From: a virus
Lineage: Duplodnaviria; Caudoviricetes
DNA length: 28,829 bases
Direction: 5' to 3' (one strand)
IMG/VR virus record: IMGVR_UViG_3300011339_000177
Location: 1 to 28,829 of that record
Shown here: in pieces, positions 6,395 to 28,597 of the stretch
How the letters are laid out: each line of letters starts with the position of its first letter
Numbering within the stretch: position 1 is the stretch's first letter
Translations under genes and position numbers: made by a program
Notes under the pieces: generated by a model
The model's input: only the letters and a program-made list of their open reading frames with translations
The model's database searches: none
What the model was told of the DNA's origin: nothing

Positions 6395-7950
6395 GCCAAG
6401 CACTGCAAACTGCGAGTGTTCAAGCACCAGGCTTCTACGGGCTGAACACGCAAGACTCTCCACTGGACTTGTCTAGCGGGTTTGCTTTGGTTGCGACTAA
6501 CTGCGTGATTGACCAGTACGGACGTATTGGCGCTAGGAATGGCTGGTCCAGGATCAATGCTTCATCAGGAAACCTCGGCGCTAATGATGTTGGCGTTGTC
6601 CATGAGTTAGTGCAACCTGATGGGACCATCACTGTTCTATTTGCTGGCAACAACAAACTCTTCAAGTTAAGCAGCACCAACACGGTTACCGAGTTAACGT
6701 ATGGCGGTGGAGGCACTGGGCCTACGATTACCGCTAATAACTGGTCATGCGCCTCCCTTAACGGCATAACCTACTTCTTCCAAACTGGGTACGATCCATT
6801 GATCTATGACCCAGCAGTAAGTACAACAACCTATAGGCGTGTTAGTGAGAAAACCGGCTATGTTGGAACGGTCCCAAGTGGAGATATTGTTATCTCAGCG
6901 TTTGGACGTTTGTGGGTTGCTAATACCGCATCCATAAAGAGCACAGTCTATTTTTCTGATCTGTTGTCTGGTCATGTATGGTCAACAGGGACATCTGGCT
7001 CCTTGAACGTGGACAGGGTTTGGACTAATGGAGCCGATGAGATCACCGGCCTGGCAACGCATAACGGTTCGTTAATCATCTTTGGCAAGCGTCAAATCTT
7101 GGTGTACGCAAATGCAACAACACCATCAACAATGTCACTGACTGACGCTGTTGGAGGTATCGGCTGCACTGCAAGGGATACGATCCAATCTACGGGCAAA
7201 GACATCCTTTTCCTGTCTAATTCTGGCGTTAGATCGTTTGCTAGGACAATCATTGAGAAGTCAGCACCACTAGGCGATCTATCCAAGAATGTCCGCAATG
7301 ACCTGATGGCATCACTTGCAAGCGAAACACTTGCTAACGTCAAATCAGTGTATTCCGAAAAGGAAGCGTTCTATTTGCTTACACTGCCATCCACCAAGCA
7401 AGTCTATTGCTTTGATACGAGGGTGCAGTTGCAGGATGGATCGTTTAGGGTAACTGTCTGGGACTCGATTGAGCCTACCGCTTTGCTATATCGGCGCAAT
7501 GGTGACCTGGTTATAGGTAAGAACGGGTATTTGGGTAAGTACGAGAACTATCAGGACTACACCTCAACCTACCGATTGATGTATTACACCAATCATTCTG
7601 ACTTGGGCGCTCAAAATGCCACTTCAGTGTTGAAGAAGTTAAAGACTGTGGTGATTGGTGGGTCAAACCAGTTTGTCACCATGAAATGGGCGTTTGATTT
7701 CACGGCAAACTATTTGTCTAGTAATGTCTCAATTCCAACGCAAAGCGTTAGTGAATACGGGATTGCTGAATACGGAGCAAATGCCACGGTTGTCGCTAAA
7801 TATTCTGATGGTGTTGCTTTGCAAACTCTAGTCACGCAAGCCAGTGGCGCGGGTAAAATTGTCCAAACTGGATACGAATCAACCATAAATGGTAACCCGT
7901 TGTCAATTCAGAGGATAGAAATCCAATTCAAGGATGGGAAGCAAACATGA
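6391..7950 (+). CDS. Tail hub / packaged-DNA stabilisation protein (P22 gp10 / T7 gp12-like)
   Basis: 519 aa, PGFYGLNTQDSP start, beta-propeller-like repeats (GRLWVA, GSLIIFGK, GIGC, DILFLS). Confidence 0.75.
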   Translation: MSQALQTASVQAPGFYGLNTQDSPLDLSSGFALVATNCVIDQYGRIGARNGWSRINASSGNLGANDVGVVHELVQPDGTITVLFAGNNKLFKLSSTNTVTELTYGGGGTGPTITANNWSCASLNGITYFFQTGYDPLIYDPAVSTTTYRRVSEKTGYVGTVPSGDIVISAFGRLWVANTASIKSTVYFSDLLSGHVWSTGTSGSLNVDRVWTNGADEITGLATHNGSLIIFGKRQILVYANATTPSTMSLTDAVGGIGCTARDTIQSTGKDILFLSNSGVRSFARTIIEKSAPLGDLSKNVRNDLMASLASETLANVKSVYSEKEAFYLLTLPSTKQVYCFDTRVQLQDGSFRVTVWDSIEPTALLYRRNGDLVIGKNGYLGKYENYQDYTSTYRLMYYTNHSDLGAQNATSVLKKLKTVVIGGSNQFVTMKWAFDFTANYLSSNVSIPTQSVSEYGIAEYGANATVVAKYSDGVALQTLVTQASGAGKIVQTGYESTINGNPLSIQRIEIQFKDGKQT

Positions 7951-8480
7951 GCGCTCTTCGCTTGGTTTTGGCAACAAAAATTTGCAGTCAATGCAAGGAA
8001 GAAAAGTTGCCTACCGAATTTTCATTAAATAACGCAGCAAAAGATCGCTTGCAATATAAGTGCCGAACTTGCGATGTAAAGTACCAAGCGCAGCGCCGAA
8101 ATGCAAACAAGGATAAGTTTGCAATGTATTCACGGAATTATCAACGTGGTCGTCGGCAAGATTTTGATTACCGTTTGCAGATGTTGATAAACGCATCAAA
8201 GCAAAGATCAAAGTTAAATTACCGCGAACACGACATAAACGTAGAAGATATAAAATCCATCTACCCTATTGATGGTTGCTGCCCAATTTTTGGGATAAAA
8301 CTTGAGTTTAACGGCGCAGGATTTAGAGACAGTAGCCCCAGCATTGACAGAATAGACTCAACAAAAGGCTATACCCGCGACAACATTCAAGTTATTTCTT
8401 GGAAAGCTAATCGTATAAAAGGCGCTTCATCTTTGCAAGATTTAGAGATGATGGTTGCGTATCTGAAACAAGGAGATTGA
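7947..8480 (+). CDS. HNH/His-Me-finger-type endonuclease with N-terminal zinc finger (likely homing endonuclease)
   Basis: CSQC...CRTC zinc finger; CPIFG; SPSIDRIDSTKGYTRDNIQVISWKANRIK nuclease motif; inserted among tail genes. Confidence 0.75.
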   Translation: MSALRLVLATKICSQCKEEKLPTEFSLNNAAKDRLQYKCRTCDVKYQAQRRNANKDKFAMYSRNYQRGRRQDFDYRLQMLINASKQRSKLNYREHDINVEDIKSIYPIDGCCPIFGIKLEFNGAGFRDSSPSIDRIDSTKGYTRDNIQVISWKANRIKGASSLQDLEMMVAYLKQGD

Positions 8481-18663: not shown

Positions 18664-18870
18664 ATGATTACACCGACTGAACAAGCAATCGAGGCAATAC
18701 GCCTCAGAGCAAAGAAAGCAGGGTTCAAGATGAACGACATAGCGCAGGCTGCAGGCGTAGACCCTGCCCAGCTATCGCGCTGGAGCACCGGCAAGACTGT
18801 CCCGCTGTACTCGAACATCTCCAAGCTGGAGCAGGCAGTGGACGCGCTGATAGCGGCGAAACAACCATGA
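18664..18870 (+). CDS. Cro/XRE-family HTH regulator
   Basis: MNDIAQAAGVDPAQLSRWSTGKTVP helix-turn-helix; 68 aa; first gene of the rightward operon. Confidence 0.85.
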   Translation: MITPTEQAIEAIRLRAKKAGFKMNDIAQAAGVDPAQLSRWSTGKTVPLYSNISKLEQAVDALIAAKQP

Positions 18871-19337
18871 TCGTTATGTCCATTGACCCAGGACTGAGTG
18901 GCGCGATTGCCGTGTTTATTGATGACGTTTTGATTGACGTTGTGGATATGCCCACTCACGAACTCACCCGCAACGGCAAAGCGAAGCGGCAGATTTCAGC
19001 GTCTGCGCTGGCAGGCATATTCACTCAGCATGACCCACGCCACGTAGTAGTCGAGCGCGTCTCTGCAATGCCAGGTCAAGGCGTGACAAGTATGTTTAGC
19101 TTCGGGCGCTCTTTTGGCATTATTGAGGGCATCTTAGCCGCCTACAACATACCCGCTACCTTTGTTATGCCTAGCGTCTGGACAAAGGGCATAGGCCGTG
19201 GAGCAGGCAAGGATGCATCACGCGCCAGAGCCTGCGAACTCTATCCCCAGCACCAGCAAAAGTTTGCACGGGTCAAGGATGACGGGCGCGCCGATGCCGT
19301 GCTGATTGGAGCCTGGTACTTGAAGGCGAACAAATGA
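18867..19337 (+). CDS. RuvC-like Holliday junction resolvase
   Basis: SIDPGLSGAIA, VVVERV..MPGQGVTSMFSFG, DGRADAVLIG acidic catalytic motifs. Confidence 0.85.
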   Translation: MIVMSIDPGLSGAIAVFIDDVLIDVVDMPTHELTRNGKAKRQISASALAGIFTQHDPRHVVVERVSAMPGQGVTSMFSFGRSFGIIEGILAAYNIPATFVMPSVWTKGIGRGAGKDASRARACELYPQHQQKFARVKDDGRADAVLIGAWYLKANK

Positions 19338-21268: not shown

Positions 21269-21286
21269 CCTCTAAATAAAACAAGT

Positions 21287-21901
21287 ATGAAAATCTTAAT
21301 AGCTTGCGAATACAGCGGTGCAGTTAGAGATGCTTTTATCGCTAAAGGGCATGATGCTATGAGTTGCGACCTGTTACCTACAGATGTACCAGGGCCACAT
21401 TATCAAGGCGATGTCTTTGATGTAATCAACGACGGCTGGGATTTGATGGTTGCCCATCCACCATGCACTTATCTCAGCGTAAGCGGTATGCACTGGACAA
21501 CACGAGGTCTGCGGGACCCGCAGTTAACGGAAGATGCGCTGGCCTTTGTTCAGCTACTAATGAACGCGCCAATCAAAAAAATTGCAATTGAGAACCCCGT
21601 TAGCGTCATAAGCAGCCGTATCCGTAAACCAGATCAAATTATTAGTCCGTACCAATTTGGACATGATGCTAGTAAAAAGACTTGTTTATGGCTAAAGAAT
21701 TTGCCTTTGCTTACGCACACCCAAATAATTGAGCCTCGCATCGTCATAACGCCTAGCGGGAAACCGGCAAAACGTTGGGGTAATCAATGCGATAACTATG
21801 GGCAGGACAAACTACCCCCAAGCGCCGACAGGTGGAAACTTCGCAGCGCAACATATCAAGGCATTGCAAATGCTATGGCACAACAATGGGGCTGCACATA
21901 A
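21287..21901 (+). CDS. Short DNA cytosine-5 methyltransferase-like protein
   Basis: ILIACEYSG (motif I variant), AHPPC (catalytic PC), IENPV (motif VI), C-terminal GIANAMAQQWG. Confidence 0.75.
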   Translation: MKILIACEYSGAVRDAFIAKGHDAMSCDLLPTDVPGPHYQGDVFDVINDGWDLMVAHPPCTYLSVSGMHWTTRGLRDPQLTEDALAFVQLLMNAPIKKIAIENPVSVISSRIRKPDQIISPYQFGHDASKKTCLWLKNLPLLTHTQIIEPRIVITPSGKPAKRWGNQCDNYGQDKLPPSADRWKLRSATYQGIANAMAQQWGCT

Positions 21902-23874
21902 TGGACACAGAAACAATAGCCAAGACGCTAGGCAACGCCAAGCAAGTCAACGGGCAGTGGCTTGCTAGTTGCCCTGTTGCTAGTCACGGCAGGGGTAATG
22001 GGGACAAGAACCCCAGCCTATCGATTACGGAATCCGAGGGCAAGGTCTTGTTCCACTGCCACGGCGGGTGCGACCAGCGCGAAGTGTTTGATGCGGTCAG
22101 GGAGCGCAACCTGTTGCAGTCAAGCCCTAAACGTGAGGAGATTAGCTTTACGCAGCATCAGCAGCCCGTACTGGAGAAGGAATGGGTGTACAGGTCAGAG
22201 GATGGCACGGAACTGTTTACCAAGCGCCGGTACAAGACAAGTGACGCAAAGGGTAAGACGTACTCTATCCACAGGGTTGACGCTAGTGGTAAGCGGATAG
22301 CGGGACTCAAGGACACAAGAATAGTCCCGCTGAATCTGCCTGAGTTACTAGCCGCCAAGCAAGCAGGCAAAGCGATCTACTTGGTGGAGGGTGAGAAGGC
22401 AGCGGACGCATTGGCATCAATAGGCGCAGTTGCCACCACCAGCCACACAGGTGCAGGATCATGGCCTACGGAGATCACGCAATACTTTACCGGCGCAAAT
22501 GTCGTAGTAATTCCAGATCACGATGAACCAGGCCGCAGTTACGCCAAACGTGCAATTGCTCATCTGTTACCAGTTGCCAAGTCAGTGCGCTACCTTGACC
22601 TTAATCTAATGATGGAGGGCGATGATGCCTACGAGTGGGTTTATCACGCCAAAGGCACTAGAAAGGAACTCGCGGAACTGGCTAAGAATGCCGAGGTAAT
22701 CACGAATCAAGTAGCTGTCACGGATAGCGAAGAGTTACCGGAAGTGTTTAATCCTGTTGCTCAATTGCTAAATATCGAGCCTTGGGACAACATCAAGGAC
22801 GAGCCGGTCAGTTGGATCATTAAGGATGTGCTCCCAAGCAAAGGATTTGCAGCCCTGTACGGGCCACCAGGCTCCTACAAGTCATTCATTGCGCTGGACA
22901 TTGCCGAGGCTATCGCCACTGGCAGGCCATGGATGGGTAACGAGGTCACGAACCCTGGTGCAGTCTTATATATAGCTGGTGAAGGCCACGGCGGTATCGG
23001 TGCAAGGATTATGGCCTGCAAGATAAACCACAATACAAAGGACGGTGCTGAGATATTCGTAATCAGACACCAGTTAAACCTGAGATCAAGCGCAGATGAC
23101 TTTAATATATTAATGGAATCTATTGATGAGTTAATACAGCGAACAGGAATAGATTTAAGGTTAATCCAGATAGATACCCTAGCAAGGGCATTTGGAGGCG
23201 GCAACGAGAACGATTCTCAGGACATGGGCGCATTCATCCATAACTGCGGACGGATGCAACGCAAGCTGGACTGCGCCCTGATGCCATTGCATCACAGTGG
23301 CAAGGATTCCACCAAAGGATTGCGCGGTCACAGTAGCTTGCTTGGTGCAGTGGATACCCAGCTAGAACTACAAAAGATGCAGATGGACGAGCCAAAGGAT
23401 GGCGTGGCAGGCCGAGGGATCATCACCATAAGTAAGCAAAAGGACGGGCAGGACAACCTCAAATTTGGCTTTGAGATGGTCCACATTGACATCAGCGAAG
23501 GTCTAAACCTGGGCGAGTCAACCTCGCTAGGTGTCAGGGAATATCAGGAAATGATTGACGAGCAGCACAAGAAAACAAGGACACCACCACCAAGATCAGG
23601 CGCTGGTGGGGTCCAAAAGGTGGCCTTGGATGCCTTACACAAGGCGATTGCGGAGCACGGAGAGATGCGGTTAGTTGACGGAAAGCGCAATAAAGCGGTT
23701 CACGTTGAGCAGTGGATGGAGGCTTTTTCAGCCGCCCAGACCGACAAAGTAGGCATTAAAAAGCGGTTTACAAGGTGCGTACAGAGCCTCCAGAACGCCA
23801 AAAAGGTCGAGGTTTTCGATCCGTTTGTGTGGGTTATTTGGGGTGATGATGACCAAAATGATAGCGACTTTTAG
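21901..23874 (+). CDS. Primase-helicase (Zn finger + TOPRIM + RepA/AAA_25-type helicase)
   Basis: CPVASH...CHGGC; VEGEKAAD and PDHDEPG TOPRIM; Walker A GPPGSYKS; IQIDTLAR Walker B; HHSGKD, LRGHSSL; start ATG 21901 overlaps the MTase stop (TAATG). Confidence 0.9.
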   Translation: MDTETIAKTLGNAKQVNGQWLASCPVASHGRGNGDKNPSLSITESEGKVLFHCHGGCDQREVFDAVRERNLLQSSPKREEISFTQHQQPVLEKEWVYRSEDGTELFTKRRYKTSDAKGKTYSIHRVDASGKRIAGLKDTRIVPLNLPELLAAKQAGKAIYLVEGEKAADALASIGAVATTSHTGAGSWPTEITQYFTGANVVVIPDHDEPGRSYAKRAIAHLLPVAKSVRYLDLNLMMEGDDAYEWVYHAKGTRKELAELAKNAEVITNQVAVTDSEELPEVFNPVAQLLNIEPWDNIKDEPVSWIIKDVLPSKGFAALYGPPGSYKSFIALDIAEAIATGRPWMGNEVTNPGAVLYIAGEGHGGIGARIMACKINHNTKDGAEIFVIRHQLNLRSSADDFNILMESIDELIQRTGIDLRLIQIDTLARAFGGGNENDSQDMGAFIHNCGRMQRKLDCALMPLHHSGKDSTKGLRGHSSLLGAVDTQLELQKMQMDEPKDGVAGRGIITISKQKDGQDNLKFGFEMVHIDISEGLNLGESTSLGVREYQEMIDEQHKKTRTPPPRSGAGGVQKVALDALHKAIAEHGEMRLVDGKRNKAVHVEQWMEAFSAAQTDKVGIKKRFTRCVQSLQNAKKVEVFDPFVWVIWGDDDQNDSDF

Positions 23875-23903
23875 GGCGTTTTATTGCTTACGTATTTGGA
23901 GAC

Positions 23904-24104
23904 GGACAAATGGGACAAATGGTGGGACAAATGGACGGATGAGAGGGAAAACACGAAAACGGGACAAATGGACAAATGGGACAAATGGAGGACAAATGGT
24001 GGACAAATGGTGGGACAAATGGACAAAATGGCTGGTAAGCATCAATTTGGCGAGAATGGGACAAATGGGAGAGCGTATTCTTAATATACGCTCCCATTTG
24101 TCCC
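23904..24104 (+). repeat. Iteron-like GGACAAATGG array ending in a long hairpin (candidate phage origin)
   Basis: Direct copies start at 23904, 23913, 23925, 23962, 23970, 23979, 23990, 24001, 24013, 24059; variant at 24021; inverted copy 24094-24103; hairpin 24058-24104. Confidence 0.9.
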
Positions 24105-24133
24105 GTTTCCAAATGCCCGGATAGGAGAACCAA

Positions 24134-24772
24134 GTGGCAACAAATAAACGTAAAACCTTGATGGTGGAAACGCCAGCAATGCCTAGCTTTCCAGCGGATA
24201 AGTTCGAGGTGTTCAAAAACGCTGTGATGGTGGAACTGACAAACCGAAAGAATACCCATGATGCTGTGTGGGGTATTGATAGATTGATTTGGATGGTGGA
24301 TAGCGAGTTGCGGGAAAAGGTCTGGGCGCAACTGGAACGGGTGTACCAGGCACAGGAGTCCAGGGACGATCAGAAGCTGGACAAAGCAGTCAAGGGAATG
24401 TGCAAGGCGTACCAAGCGATGGAGGATTGGGCAACGGCTAACGGAGTCAGCGAACTGCCTGACGTTCGACAGATCGAGCACCAGCAACCCGATGGGACAG
24501 TTTTCGTTGTCGTGCCAGATGAACGAGCCAAACGCTTGTACCTCCAGCAGTGGCCTGGTACAACGGACAGGGTTGTCTGGACAATGGCAGAGATTGCCCT
24601 AATCATGGGCCAGCAGGCACAGGGACAGATCAACGAGATCAAGCGGCTGTGGCCCGATAGTCAAGTGGTCAAGGTCGGTGGGCCATCAGGGTTTGACGAT
24701 ATGGTCAATGATCTGGATATGCGGCCCAATACCCTGCCCAAATTGTTCGATACCAAAGCGTTTGTGAGGTAG
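24134..24772 (+). CDS. Conserved phage hypothetical protein
   Basis: GTG start after AGGAG; 212 aa; WGIDRLIWMVDSELREK motif. Confidence 0.75.
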   Translation: MATNKRKTLMVETPAMPSFPADKFEVFKNAVMVELTNRKNTHDAVWGIDRLIWMVDSELREKVWAQLERVYQAQESRDDQKLDKAVKGMCKAYQAMEDWATANGVSELPDVRQIEHQQPDGTVFVVVPDERAKRLYLQQWPGTTDRVVWTMAEIALIMGQQAQGQINEIKRLWPDSQVVKVGGPSGFDDMVNDLDMRPNTLPKLFDTKAFVR

Positions 24773-24775
24773 CGT

Positions 24776-25030
24776 ATGGTGCGTCCAGCTAGTCCCAATA
24801 CCAGGTACTTCCAGCGGCAACTGCAACCCCAGGAGAAGAAGATTCTGCTGGCTGCTGGTCAAGGCGATATGTCAGCAGGCTTCTTGGAAGTGATGAGCGC
24901 CTACCAGCATTTTTACAATTTGGGACTTAGGCCAGATATGCCGCTTCAGAGCGTTAGGCTAGTCCTACCATCACCCAACAAATTCCCTCTTGAAATGGGC
25001 CTATCTGATGGCCTTAACGGGCACTCCTGA
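24776..25030 (+). CDS. Hypothetical protein
   Basis: GAGGT SD; 84 aa; FQRQL...EKKILLAAGQGDMSAGF. Confidence 0.65.
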   Translation: MVRPASPNTRYFQRQLQPQEKKILLAAGQGDMSAGFLEVMSAYQHFYNLGLRPDMPLQSVRLVLPSPNKFPLEMGLSDGLNGHS

Positions 25031-25396
25031 TGGCTGTGCTTTGGCGATGTTCTTTAAGAACTGGTTTTAGTAACAAACTATCGGTTTGCTTGGCATGATA
25101 GGCGTAGGCTATAGGTTCCTAGCCTTTGCTTGGCAGCGGCTAGGCTGTGCTTAGTAGCGGCTAGATTGTCGCTTCGTGCCACGTTCAGCGACATTGTCAT
25201 CCTTGGCTAGGTATGACGACAAAGCACCATCCAACCCTTTCTCACTTTTTCTTTCCCCGCGCCGCGCCGCCGCGCTCGCTGGCCCGAGTTATCCACAATC
25301 CCAGATGCCAGTTGCCAGGTTCTATCCACAATTTCCTGTGGACAACTCGATTCTGTGCAATTTGCCTGTGGATATCCTGTGGATAAGCAAGCGATA

Positions 25397-25424
25397 ACTT
25401 AACATAATGGACACTGTATAAAGT
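25397..25424 (-). other. dif-like XerC/XerD recombination site (11-6-11)
   Basis: Minus strand ACTTTATACAG-TGTCCA-TTATGTTAAGT; XerD arm 10/11 to E. coli TTATGTTAAAT, spacer 4/6 to TGTATA, XerC arm degenerate; outer ACTT/AAGT dyad. Confidence 0.7.
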
Positions 25425-25458
25425 AGACTTTTGTTGCTAAAAAACAAATGTTCAATGA

Positions 25459-25471
25459 TATCAATGACTTA
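25459..25471 (+). promoter_or_regulatory. IHF binding site
   Basis: TATCAATGACTTA matches WATCAANNNNTTR exactly, with an upstream A-tract (about 25439-25448). Confidence 0.65.
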
Positions 25472-25526
25472 CAAACGTTATCCACAGTATCCACAGCTGC
25501 CTGTGGATAACTAGGCGGCTGGCGAC

Positions 25527-25583
25527 ATGGGGGGGAGGGGGTCGGCCTCGGCTGTTGAAATTGTGGGTGCTTCCTCCCCCCAT
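25527..25583. repeat. G/C-run inverted repeat upstream of terS
   Basis: ATGGGGGGGAGG (25527-25538) ... CCTCCCCCCAT (25573-25583). Confidence 0.6.
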
Positions 25584-25603
25584 AAAAAGGGAAACTGACT
25601 AAA

Positions 25604-26032
25604 ATGCCCGACAACCGACTTCCCGAAAGGAAAAAAGTGGAAAACGAAACTTTCGCCGCAGCCCTTGACCCTGTACCCGAAACCAGCGCAACGCAGACCA
25701 AACCCAGACGCGGCAGACCCAAAGGTTCGGGAAAGATGACGATCCAGAAGTACGCTGCCAATCCCCCGAGCCTGCCCAAGACCGATTACCAGCGGATCAA
25801 GGAGCTGCGGGAGTTGATGATCCACAGTGGCGGGAAGGACGTAGCGAACAAGGTTATTCAGATTGCGCTCAATGACGAGCACCCTGGACAGATGGCGGCG
25901 CTGAAGATGTGCTTGGACCGGACGCTGCCGGTGAGTATGTTTGAGAAGGACAAGCACCAAAGGAGTGCGGTGACGATCAATATAACTGGATTGGGGCAGG
26001 AGCCTACGGTGCTGGAGGCCATTGATGTCTAA
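25604..26032 (+). CDS. terS: Putative terminase small subunit
   Basis: Directly upstream of and overlapping terL; RRGRPKGS basic motif, helical core, AVTINITGL C-terminal strand; start uncertain. Confidence 0.65.
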   Translation: MPDNRLPERKKVENETFAAALDPVPETSATQTKPRRGRPKGSGKMTIQKYAANPPSLPKTDYQRIKELRELMIHSGGKDVANKVIQIALNDEHPGQMAALKMCLDRTLPVSMFEKDKHQRSAVTINITGLGQEPTVLEAIDV

Positions 26033-27281
26033 CTTGAACTTCAGCCTCTTGCCGTGGCAGCAGGAGGTGTTTACCGATACAACCAGGTTCAAGGTTATCG
26101 CTGCTGGCAGGCGGTGCGGCAAGAGTAGGCTGGCAGCGACTACATTGATTATTGAGGGATTAAGGTGTCCACCTGGCTCGGCGGTGTTGTATGTGAGTCC
26201 GACTATGGGGCAGTCGCGGCAGATTATCTGGGATTTATTATTAGAGTTAGGCCGCGAGGTAATACAGGGTTCGCACGTTAATAATTTAGATATTACGTTG
26301 ATTAATGGTGCGCGGATATATGTACGCGGTGCGGATAGACCTGATACTTTGCGCGGAGTTAGTTTGACGTATGCGGTATTAGACGAGGTGGCAGATATTA
26401 AACCTGGTACTTGGGAGCAGGTTATTCGTGCGAGTTTGAGCGATAAGAAGGGTCGCTGCATGATGATTGGTACTCCGAAGGGAAGAAACTGGTTTTATGA
26501 TTTATATAACTTAGGGCAGGATGGTACTGATCCCGAGTGGAAGTCTTGGCACTTTACAACGGCAGATAACCCGTTGATTGACCCAGATGAGATTGAGAGC
26601 GCTAAGAAGACCTTATCCACGTTTTCGTTTAAGCAAGAGTACATGGCTAGCTTTTCCAATGCTGGCGCGGACGTGTTTAAGGAGGAATGGATTAAGTACG
26701 GGGTGGAGCCTGAATACGGGAGTTACTTTGTAGCGATTGACTTAGCGGGGTTTGAGGAAGTTGCCAAGCAAGCGGCGAATAGTAAGAAGCGGCTGGATGA
26801 ATCTGCCATTTGCGTGGTGAAGGTGACCGATGACGGGAAGTGGTTTGTTAAGGAGATCGAGCACGGGCGCTGGGATATTCGGGAAACGGCGGCTAAGATA
26901 CTGATGAAGATGAGGGATTACCGGCCTTTGAGCGTGGGGATCGAGCGCGGGGCGCTAAAGAATGCGGTTTTGCCGTATTTATCGGACCTGATGCGTAAGA
27001 ACAATGTGTACTCGCACATTGTGGATTTGACTCACGGTAATAGGAAGAAAACCGATAGAATCATCTGGTCGTTACAGGGACGCTTTGAGCACGGGCGGGT
27101 TATCCTTAATTCGGAGGAGAAGTGGGATGACTTTGTTGACCAGTTACTGATGTTCCCGTCCCATGGCGTACACGATGACCTTCCCGATGCGCTTTCCTAC
27201 ATGGACCAGTTGGCGGTGACCAGCTACTTTGAGGAGGCCGATGACGAGTGGGAGCCGATGGACATAATTGCGGGGATTTAG
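26025..27281 (+). CDS. terL: Terminase large subunit
   Basis: Walker A AAGRRCGKS, Walker B AVLDEVA, IGTPKGRNWFY, nuclease AIDLAG and HDDLPDALSY; GGAGG SD favours ATG 26025. Confidence 0.95.
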   Translation: MSNLNFSLLPWQQEVFTDTTRFKVIAAGRRCGKSRLAATTLIIEGLRCPPGSAVLYVSPTMGQSRQIIWDLLLELGREVIQGSHVNNLDITLINGARIYVRGADRPDTLRGVSLTYAVLDEVADIKPGTWEQVIRASLSDKKGRCMMIGTPKGRNWFYDLYNLGQDGTDPEWKSWHFTTADNPLIDPDEIESAKKTLSTFSFKQEYMASFSNAGADVFKEEWIKYGVEPEYGSYFVAIDLAGFEEVAKQAANSKKRLDESAICVVKVTDDGKWFVKEIEHGRWDIRETAAKILMKMRDYRPLSVGIERGALKNAVLPYLSDLMRKNNVYSHIVDLTHGNRKKTDRIIWSLQGRFEHGRVILNSEEKWDDFVDQLLMFPSHGVHDDLPDALSYMDQLAVTSYFEEADDEWEPMDIIAGI

Positions 27282-27283
27282 AT

Positions 27284-28597
27284 ATGGGATTATTTGATCG
27301 GTTGATGCAGCCCCAAGCACCAAGGCGTAATCTTATGGATACGCAGATGGTGCGCCGCCCCAGCGAGTCTTATCTGCGCCAGGATTACCCTACCGTTTAT
27401 GGCGCACTTGGCGGTTTGCTTGGCACTGCGCCCGATGAGATGGCTGGCAGCGTACTCGATCCCAATACCGCAGCCGTGCGCCGAGGCGCTGAGTACGGGT
27501 TCCCTGTTGGCACTGCGCTTGGGATGCTGCCTGCGGCAAGATTCACCAAGGGTTTGCCTGTAGGGATGGGGATTAAGGATGTTAGTAAAAAGAACATTGA
27601 TGTCAGTCTAAATAATTTAAGCAACTTTTTGTCTGCCAAATCTGAATTTGGGCAAGTTGGAGGAACAATACGTCCTGCGGATAAATTTTCAGACAAGCCA
27701 TATTTGCAAATCAATTATGCTGAAGTTGAAAAGGAAAGTCGAGGAATGGGAAAGGGCAAAGAGCTTTATCAATCACTTATTGATGACGCTCAAGCTAGAG
27801 GTCTAAGGGTTTTTAGTGATTCCACAGTGGAAAAACCAGCAGTCAATGTTTACAAGTCTCTTGGAAAAAAAGATTATGAGTTGAGGGACATGACAAAGGG
27901 AAGTTTGGAGGATGGTTCAGTTTATGGTGCTGGTGCTAAAAATCCAGCATTTGAAATTTTGCCAAGACAATCACCCTACCCACAACAAGCCGCCTTAGAC
28001 CTTGCCCAGCAACGGGCTGCATTGCCTGTTAGTAAATCTCTATTAATGTCAATACCATCTGGATTAACGAGAACAGAGCAAGCTAATTTAATTAAAAATC
28101 ATGCGGAAAATTTTGCGGCCAAAGCAAAAGAAATGGGGTTGTCTGCTTCTGTAGAGCATAGTGGTAGTAAAGCTGGCCCAAGTTCGTATGTAACTGTTTT
28201 AGACCCAATTACTGGGGCAAAATTTGAGTCACCATTTAGATTCTCTGGTCACAGTAAAGGGCCAAAAGAAAATCAATTTGTGTATAACGTAGGTGATGAT
28301 TTTTCTAATGAGTTAGGCGCATTAGAAAAAATGGCATTATCTATCCCAAAAGCTGAACGTGATGCTATTCAAAGCGCAAGGCAAGCAAAAATGATTAAAG
28401 ATTTGGCTTTGCAAGAAAAAGAGCGTATTTTTTCTCAAGGTAGGCCAGCAGTTCAAAGCGCAATGCAGGAAGCAAATTTGCAGCAAACGCCATACACAAA
28501 AGCGTTTAGCAATAGCGGCAAATACATTGGCGCCAATGAGTTAGACTACCCCAGCAACCCCATGTATACAGACCCTTTGGGGTATTCGATAAGGTAA
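27284..28597 (+). CDS. Multidomain (polyvalent-like) protein containing a GNAT acetyltransferase domain
   Basis: ATG 27284 three bases after the terL stop; LQINYAEVEKESRGMGKGKELYQSLID...AVNVYKSL matches GNAT motif A (RGxGxG) and downstream helix. Confidence 0.7.
   Translation: MGLFDRLMQPQAPRRNLMDTQMVRRPSESYLRQDYPTVYGALGGLLGTAPDEMAGSVLDPNTAAVRRGAEYGFPVGTALGMLPAARFTKGLPVGMGIKDVSKKNIDVSLNNLSNFLSAKSEFGQVGGTIRPADKFSDKPYLQINYAEVEKESRGMGKGKELYQSLIDDAQARGLRVFSDSTVEKPAVNVYKSLGKKDYELRDMTKGSLEDGSVYGAGAKNPAFEILPRQSPYPQQAALDLAQQRAALPVSKSLLMSIPSGLTRTEQANLIKNHAENFAAKAKEMGLSASVEHSGSKAGPSSYVTVLDPITGAKFESPFRFSGHSKGPKENQFVYNVGDDFSNELGALEKMALSIPKAERDAIQSARQAKMIKDLALQEKERIFSQGRPAVQSAMQEANLQQTPYTKAFSNSGKYIGANELDYPSNPMYTDPLGYSIR

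Follow-up and report, generated by a model that had tools for sequence, protein, structure and literature searches.

Many uncultured aquatic phages bear an Xer/dif-like site together with DnaA boxes at fixed spacing beside their packaging genes, a layout that we found in hundreds of IMG/VR phage contigs. Judged from sequence, the explanation that we prefer, and to which we give a little less than an even chance, is that this module is a site of self-resolution by the host XerCD recombinase at which DnaA, and sometimes IHF, would act as accessory proteins. The Xer core is very probably a true XerCD site, and self-recombination is probably its job; that DnaA may control the reaction is a less assured part of the reading. 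The module is real, widespread and phased, and by the features examined it falls outside the cer/psi, IMEX, oriC and DARS families. With it, the phages likely have their circular DNA recombined by the host enzyme, and DnaA may control this use.

The module was noticed in the window, by which we mean the entire stretch of DNA analysed, a whole virus record of 28.8 kb (28,829 nucleotides) with an estimated completeness of 85%. The runs containing the window for which a habitat is stated are of river, lake, estuary and sea water. Gene calls, for which 48 of the 148 ORFs were scanned, typify a small tailed phage and include capsid, tail, Rz, endolysin, RuvC-like resolvase and exonuclease genes as well as a small HTH gene that starts the divergent early region; neither an integrase nor a polymerase was found among the 48 scanned ORFs. 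The genes and the repeat array referred to below are as follows:

18867..19337, plus strand: RuvC-like Holliday junction resolvase (phrog_1770, E 1.5e-34)
21832..23874, plus strand: RepA-type primase-helicase (AAA_25, weak Toprim)
23902..24108, unstranded: iteron-like array of GGACAAATGG repeats and an inverted copy, directly behind the primase gene
25604..26032, plus strand: probable terminase small subunit (terS), by its position, which is kept before terL in relatives
26022..27281, plus strand: terminase large subunit (terL; phrog_2, E 7e-46, Terminase_6N)

A profile search with the terS product gave no family match, and the RuvC-like resolvase could complete half an Xer reaction. No close cultured relative of the window was found by TerL or primase, and the search for primase homologs returned no host name. 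The window further contains a methyltransferase-like gene (phrog_757, 21287-21901) that is missing in an abundant relative, the contigs of which join 21276 to 21900, a GNAT-domain ORF (27248-28597) between terL and the probable portal gene, and an endonuclease VII-like gene (7947-8480) inside the tail cluster. In relatives, the inserts near terS and terL vary.

For the 222-bp element, the original prediction had given the order of five DnaA boxes, a 28-bp dif-like site, an IHF consensus and three further DnaA boxes. With a DnaA box defined as TTATCCACA at no more than one mismatch, both the order and the counts were confirmed:

25289..25297, plus strand: perfect DnaA box at -108 from the Xer core start (-109/-108 in 16/131 clusters)
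25322..25345, unstranded: head-to-head box pair (> 6 bp <) at -75 and -60, the conserved core of the left cluster
25367..25375, minus strand: DnaA box at -30 with one mismatch, lineage-specific (5/131 clusters)
25378..25386, minus strand: perfect DnaA box at -19, ending 10 bp before the XerD arm, the most fixed of all
25397..25424, minus strand: 28-bp Xer core with Comamonadaceae-type arms and a non-dif centre
25459..25471, plus strand: IHF consensus at +62 on the XerC side, optional
25478..25510, unstranded: right box cluster (> > 6 bp <), 19/28/43 bp past the IHF site, which it accompanies
25530..25581, unstranded: G-run/C-run inverted repeat ahead of terS, outside the module

The left boxes start at 25289 (plus strand, no mismatch), 25322 (plus, one), 25337 (minus, one), 25367 (minus, one) and 25378 (minus, none), the right ones at 25478 (plus, none), 25487 (plus, one) and 25502 (minus, none). 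All four perfect DnaA boxes of the 28.8-kb window lie inside the element, and its eight boxes compare with at most three in the densest 222 bp of 200 order-2 Markov simulations. Read on the minus strand, the Xer core is ACTTTATACAG TGTCCA TTATGTTAAGT, that is, XerC arm (25414-25424), centre (25408-25413) and XerD arm (25397-25407): two 11-bp pseudo-palindromic arms that resemble host XerC/XerD arms flank a centre within the range of 6-8 bp. The sequence at 25459-25471 is presumably an IHF site. The consensus by itself is unremarkable, with six matches in the window, and the site carries weight because its phasing is conserved in relatives. No GATC site occurs in the element. The G-run/C-run inverted repeat is found family-wide across TerL relatives, module-less ones included; many contigs start at or near it, and it is a candidate packaging signal or assembly breaker. 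A promoter role was rejected on the basis of two weak sigma-70 matches against 0.7 expected and of the inversion of the module relative to transcription in relatives, and a structured RNA because the single Rfam match was far under threshold and located at the iteron hairpin.

The element is phage DNA. One Logan unitig, from a run that is possibly the source sample, covers 22377-25660 with no difference to the window, a unitig of a diverged strain covers 24200-25804, and two IMG/VR contigs (L001 and L003) have the same layout. A chimeric piece of host DNA, an outcome of read mapping that the original prediction had allowed for, is thus excluded by unitigs that bridge the element from primase to terS and by the repeated layout in other contigs. 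Unitig depth over the element was 1.5-1.8x that of the flanks in two runs and flat in a third, and was not usable.

Three scans of IMG/VR approached the spacing from different sides. The first searched for a box, 3-30 bp and an XerD arm, and matched an estimated ~390 stored stretches; among the matches listed (120 loci), the spacer was exactly 12 in 88/122. When boxes alone were searched, the XerD arm followed at exactly 10 bp in 112/119 evaluable matches, two at contig edges being dropped. A core-only scan that was blind to boxes recovered the -19 box in 57/110 (10 at edges dropped); most of its matches without that box showed others at related positions in phase. Boxes were absent altogether from 15, mostly chance matches with a few real cores. 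Over 131 clusters at 90% identity, boxes lie at -109, -99/98, -85 and -75 in forward and at -60, -30 and -19 in reverse orientation, with a box at -75 in 86/131 and at -60 in 81/131 of a set that was partly collected using these boxes. These counts refer to related contigs or clusters, not to independent events, and 59 clusters remain at 70% identity. In the 484 boxes, mismatches fall mainly on position 3 (95 A>G) and position 5 (60 C>G), at which the DnaA consensus TT(A/T)TNCACA itself varies.

The expected co-conservation at fixed spacing therefore holds for the boxes and the Xer core, and for the IHF site and the right cluster in a subset. Both were present in 2/75 loci found with the box-XerD pattern. 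The IHF consensus occurs on the XerC side in 17/117 box-bearing clusters versus 0.2 expected after shuffling; 16 of these 17 have boxes behind the IHF site, and a single cluster has two right boxes without IHF. Within a scan that allowed +55 to +75, the consensus was located at +61-63 or +71-72 in 28/29 Xer-like cores and never at +64-70. Because the two positions differ by one helical turn, this add-on is phased to the core; IHF and the second box cluster are an optional, helically phased addition.

Several sites depart from the common layout. Five contigs (L004, L030, L209, L223 and L285) have an Xer core or XerD arm next to terS that lacks DnaA boxes, in opposite orientation in L004 and L030, and two others (L026 and L031) have lone XerD-arm-like words ~530-800 bp upstream of terL with neither an XerC arm nor boxes, possibly decayed modules. 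Conversely, dense DnaA-box clusters without an Xer core at the usual place occur in six phage contigs (L373, L390, L414, L418, L431 and L432). In three viral contigs (L570, L577 and L580, match ~1501), a dif-like site has a centre resembling that of hosts and is followed by an IHF consensus at +58 or +61, in L580 with additional boxes at -80, +21 and +33; these are possibly further Xer modules. A chromosomal dif-like site beside priA in a Gammaproteobacteria MAG (L201:9003-9050) is likewise accompanied by a perfect DnaA box, oriented as in the module and 10 bp from the XerD arm; such a site with a box was found in 1/21 genomes of that MAG's family. Comparison of the element with phages and plasmids by blastn gave short chance matches only, and the module is absent from DSL-LC05, DU_RP_II and parts of two Manatee Spring records, which have the Sf6-type TerL in common.

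The arms of the core point to a host. The phage arm consensus, RCTTHATACAA and TTATGTTAAGT, fits the dif sites of Rhodoferax (ACTTGATACGA TGTATA TTATGTTAAGT, as given in the available part of PMC2731167) and of Acidovorax, Polaromonas and Variovorax, the arms of which end in AC(G/A)A, but not those of Polynucleobacter or Methylotenera, which end in ATAA (according to the portion of PMC3025954 available to us). The host is thus probably a Comamonadaceae bacterium, the evidence being that of the arm sequences, and such arms may serve as a Comamonadaceae-type host tag for uncultured phages. Two overlapping samples of Gammaproteobacteria (301 and 401 genomes) contained no usable Comamonadaceae.

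For the centre, we used 101 distinct contexts from scans that left it unspecified. Positions 5 and 6 are C and A in 100/101 each, and the psi centre, read from pSC101 as GATCCA, likewise ends in CA. XerC-arm letters outside any search pattern are also conserved, A8 and C9 in 100/101 contexts. The start of the centre varies, with TGT in 12/101 and C in 52/101. The element is not a chromosomal dif, as the centre TGTATA was found in 0/101 contexts and phage genes flank both sides. Because the centre drifts on the XerC side and never becomes TGTATA, we infer that it need not match the chromosome, as in a site that recombines with itself. One hint of recombination may be seen between the window and its relative with 98% TerL identity (L002): the two are near-identical until two bases into the centre, and then ~50 bp differ, as if a patch had been exchanged from within it. 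A systematic breakpoint test of 281 pairs was swamped by indels and gave this one clear case. KOPS-like octamers, inspected by eye, did not point consistently toward the site.

We then considered the setting of the module in 139 distinct contexts, 27 of which have it upstream of a window-type terS. In two further layouts (B and C) it lies downstream of an Sf6-like terS (PF20901), in one orientation in 84/139 and in the other in 26/139, with two contexts unassigned. The module thus occurs by terS in two unrelated terminase systems and in both orientations. The box geometry stays constant relative to the core even though the module flips with respect to transcription and changes the side of terS, and because it is fixed across three layouts, it follows the core and not a promoter or one terminase.

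The module accompanies host-polymerase-dependent replication genes. Of the TerL relatives, 49 extend 1 kb or more upstream; by rule, a core was present in 16 of these and absent in 33. In the 30 that reach 4.5 kb or more upstream, the site was present in 8/8 that encode a RepA-type primase-helicase, in three in which no RepA-type gene was in view and in 0/7 with polymerase/VapE loci, and 19 lacked both site and RepA-type gene; O-like initiators were present both with and without the site. Each of the 14 near-complete records that bear the module carries a RepA-type gene, which belongs to one of three subtypes. A tyrosine recombinase was found in 0/18 near-complete records (14 of them module-bearing), and a serine resolvase, PolA and ParA (AAA_31) in 0/15 records each, and controls for these searches were positive in 10-14 of 14 genomes. 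A blastn search of PLSDB gave no plasmid record matching the element. With no partition gene found and no plasmid or prophage record, these do not appear to be phage-plasmids, and a stable plasmid state in need of dimer resolution is without support, although the phages may have a multicopy carrier state.

If the module is a self-resolution site for host XerCD, the genome would circularise after entry and replicate from the iteron array, and the phage exonuclease and resolvase would produce dimers and multimers. Host XerC and XerD, acting at two directly repeated copies, would then interconvert monomers and multimers, and the non-host centre would prevent recombination with chromosomal dif. 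XerCD is controlled by FtsK at chromosomes, by PepA with ArgR or ArcA at plasmids and by XafT in TLC. In the phages, DnaA one helical turn from XerD would substitute for PepA/ArgR or FtsK and set timing and direction, IHF would in this lineage act as a second accessory that shapes the synapse with DnaA, and the balance of monomers and multimers would track the DnaA state of the host. The strongest form of this proposal, in which a widespread group of tailed freshwater phages has phased DnaA boxes by XerD that replace PepA/ArgR, FtsK or XafT and the choice between monomer circle and packageable multimer reads host replication, is possible but on the whole doubtful.

Some observations count against the self-resolution reading. 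The boxes of most constant spacing flank XerD, not XerC, a stable plasmid state that would call for dimer resolution finds no support, and the many relatives without the site (33/49) include several whose O-like initiators likewise depend on the host replisome. Because such host-replisome users lack it, the site must be dispensable, and because cores without boxes occur (L004, L209 and L223), DnaA is not required for the site to exist. The enrichment of TGT starts at IHF-bearing sites also fits integration. The original interpretation is therefore partly supported: an Xer site with DnaA and IHF as accessory factors is favoured in its multimer-resolution form and is without support in its integration form, for which no junctions were found; the centre also drifts freely on the XerC side. 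To call the boxes an origin-type signal was an overstatement, as they appear to behave like accessory sequences tied to a recombination site.

A different function of an Xer site beside packaging genes, which we consider unlikely, is circularisation on entry: P1 circularises its injected genome by Cre at loxP, and the phage site could likewise lie in a terminal redundancy near the packaging start, where host XerCD would join two copies. The module has terS or terL alongside it in 137/139 contexts, and in layouts B and C it follows the Sf6-like terS, a gene within which the pac site resides. Contigs of layout B end on the terS side, 16/20 ends being less than 500 bp from the core, and across the family contigs end within 1 kb upstream of terL in 31/80 cases versus 8/80 downstream. 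However, this pile-up, which is seen throughout the family and frequently coincides with the G-run hairpin, may stem from assembly; the window layout places the site upstream of terS, the module tracks replication genes and not terminase type, and exonuclease/annealing genes of the phages could do the same job. One record (G454) with a 2.86-kb, 97%-identical end overlap containing two module copies was set aside as a likely assembly overlap; other 'linear' records overlap imperfectly elsewhere.

Integration in the manner of VGJ, in which XerC swaps one strand pair with host dif, replication completes the process and IHF and DnaA would gate integration or excision, is rather unlikely as well. 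The window centre TGTCCA agrees with dif in its XerC-side half but not in its XerD-side half, which is the VGJ pattern as far as the available text of PMC5357621 describes it, and TGT starts are found in 15/22 IHF-bearing clusters versus 17/64 clusters. The phages lack an integrase, and a divergent early region begins with the small HTH gene. Prophages of this kind can be scarce in genomes, gokushoviruses being an example (in the part of PMC7062461 consulted). The described attP sites of this class (VGJphi, CTXphi, TLCphi and gokushovirus) are, like the phage module, dif-like sites borne without an integrase, but those covered by the accessible sections of PMC5357621 and PMC7062461 belong to filamentous, ssDNA or satellite elements and have no DnaA boxes. 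Against integration, the XerC-side triplet drifts, TGT being rarer than C at the start of the centre, and a relative with 98% TerL identity has the centre GGTTCA. Furthermore, no junction was detected among 7 matches in 185,579 species genomes (a misbinned phage contig, L205, the chromosomal dif-like site of L201 and five chance matches) or among 4 matches in a metagenome scan, the pattern of which also admitted the phage's own centre and all of which were free-phage contigs. A box cluster or these terminases accompanied 0/28 evaluable host-type dif sites in IMG/VR, and TGTATA was the centre of 0/29 IHF-linked cores. Because the patterns of all these searches were narrow, the negatives carry modest weight. 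Separately, 30 short viral contigs (L452-L481) with canonical TGTATA dif and AC(G/A)A arms are probably small proviruses at dif.

An improbable reading, close to the mini-oriC that had originally been proposed for an extrachromosomal prophage, assigns the boxes to the origin, either as a mini-oriC or as a distant enhancer of the iteron array, with the Xer core as an adjacent, independent resolution site. DnaA boxes and an IHF site, both parts of origins, are present in the element, the module co-occurs with RepA-type replication, and because DnaA boxes flank the iteron array in layout-B phages too, these appear to use DnaA at their likely origin. The iteron-like array is likely the phage's own origin, an arrangement adjoining the primase-helicase that recalls phage P4, and the module ~1.2 kb away is probably not an origin. 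The most repetitive stretch lies at the same position behind the primase in 7/14 complete relatives, and in three further relatives inspection by eye revealed comparable repeats accompanied by DnaA boxes. The spacing of the boxes is tied to the Xer core and not to the iterons, GATC sites are missing, and no conserved AT-rich unwinding stretch was seen by eye, the region from core to IHF being AT-rich in the window but not in relatives. The unit of the array differs by lineage (window 23902-24108; L494:17750-18100; L503:15550-15900) and could be matched to the primase C-terminus.

A very improbable option is a T5-like anchor for packaging or injection, at which the end of the genome would be held in place or bent by host proteins and XerCD would do no more than bind. 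The module resembles the T5 injection-stop region in having phased DnaA-box clusters in non-coding DNA that is not thought to be an origin (Davison, bioRxiv 10.1101/866236). The terminal repeat of T5-like phages retains eight DnaA boxes with constant phasing, the role of which is hypothetical there too, and the consulted portions of this preprint make no mention of Xer. The position beside terS would suit an anchor. Palindromes AATGAGAATCATTCTCA, which we take to resemble Fur boxes, occur near terS in some relatives (L027, L038, L026 and L031, ~650-1250 bp upstream of terL) and in T5 (L490:9550-9720). Our scan of T5, in contrast, gave no convincing Xer core beside the boxes, and T5 box pairs, unlike those of the phage module, are 3 bp apart. 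Both arms, the 6-bp spacing and the bias of the centre are kept as in an active site, and either orientation is tolerated.

Least probable of all is a DnaA sink, or a DARS/datA mimic that alters host DnaA-ATP with an incidental Xer core, which shares with E. coli DARS1/DARS2 and datA a head-to-head DnaA pair (oriented as DARS boxes I-II) and a nearby IHF site, as in datA and DARS2, but DARS1 and DARS2 cores read > 5 bp < 3 bp <, a spacing described as highly conserved (PMC6868365, PMC4585315), in contrast to > 6 bp < in the phages, where the third box follows after 0-1 bp, and the base-exact phasing to the Xer core, needless for a sink, is left unexplained by this third of the original readings.

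As a self-resolution site, the module is comparable to psi of pSC101 and cer of ColE1, which likewise provide a 28-bp core for host XerCD on a replicon without its own recombinase and a protein-binding flank of ~100-200 bp at fixed distances, the flank in the phages being predicted from motifs (PMC5357621 and bioRxiv 10.1101/2024.04.05.588136, as far as available). The phage centre shares the final CCA with psi. In cer and psi, the accessory sequence adjoins the XerC arm (same sources, in the parts consulted), whereas the most fixed boxes of the phage module are on the XerD side, with IHF and the right cluster on the XerC side in the subset described above; the module also differs in being carried by tailed phages, in a flank of DnaA boxes and IHF and in its Comamonadaceae-type arms. 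An Arg box, which in cer lies ~98 bp from the XerC arm, was not found near the element at up to three mismatches, with four chance-level matches elsewhere. P1 offers a tailed-phage recombination site that keeps circles monomeric, but, unlike these phages, P1 encodes Cre and a partition system, and loxP needs no accessory flank (PMC2409434, in the text available).

In the full-text literature searched, subscription papers and bioRxiv supplements aside, no description of DnaA boxes coupled to a phage Xer site was found. If our reading is true, a DnaA-gated Xer site would be a new mode of control that links the initiator to the terminus machinery, and tailed phages would exploit host Xer on their own DNA without integrating. 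The hundreds of natural variants, with a 10-bp shift of IHF, boxes on one or both sides and a drifting centre, amount to ready phasing mutants.
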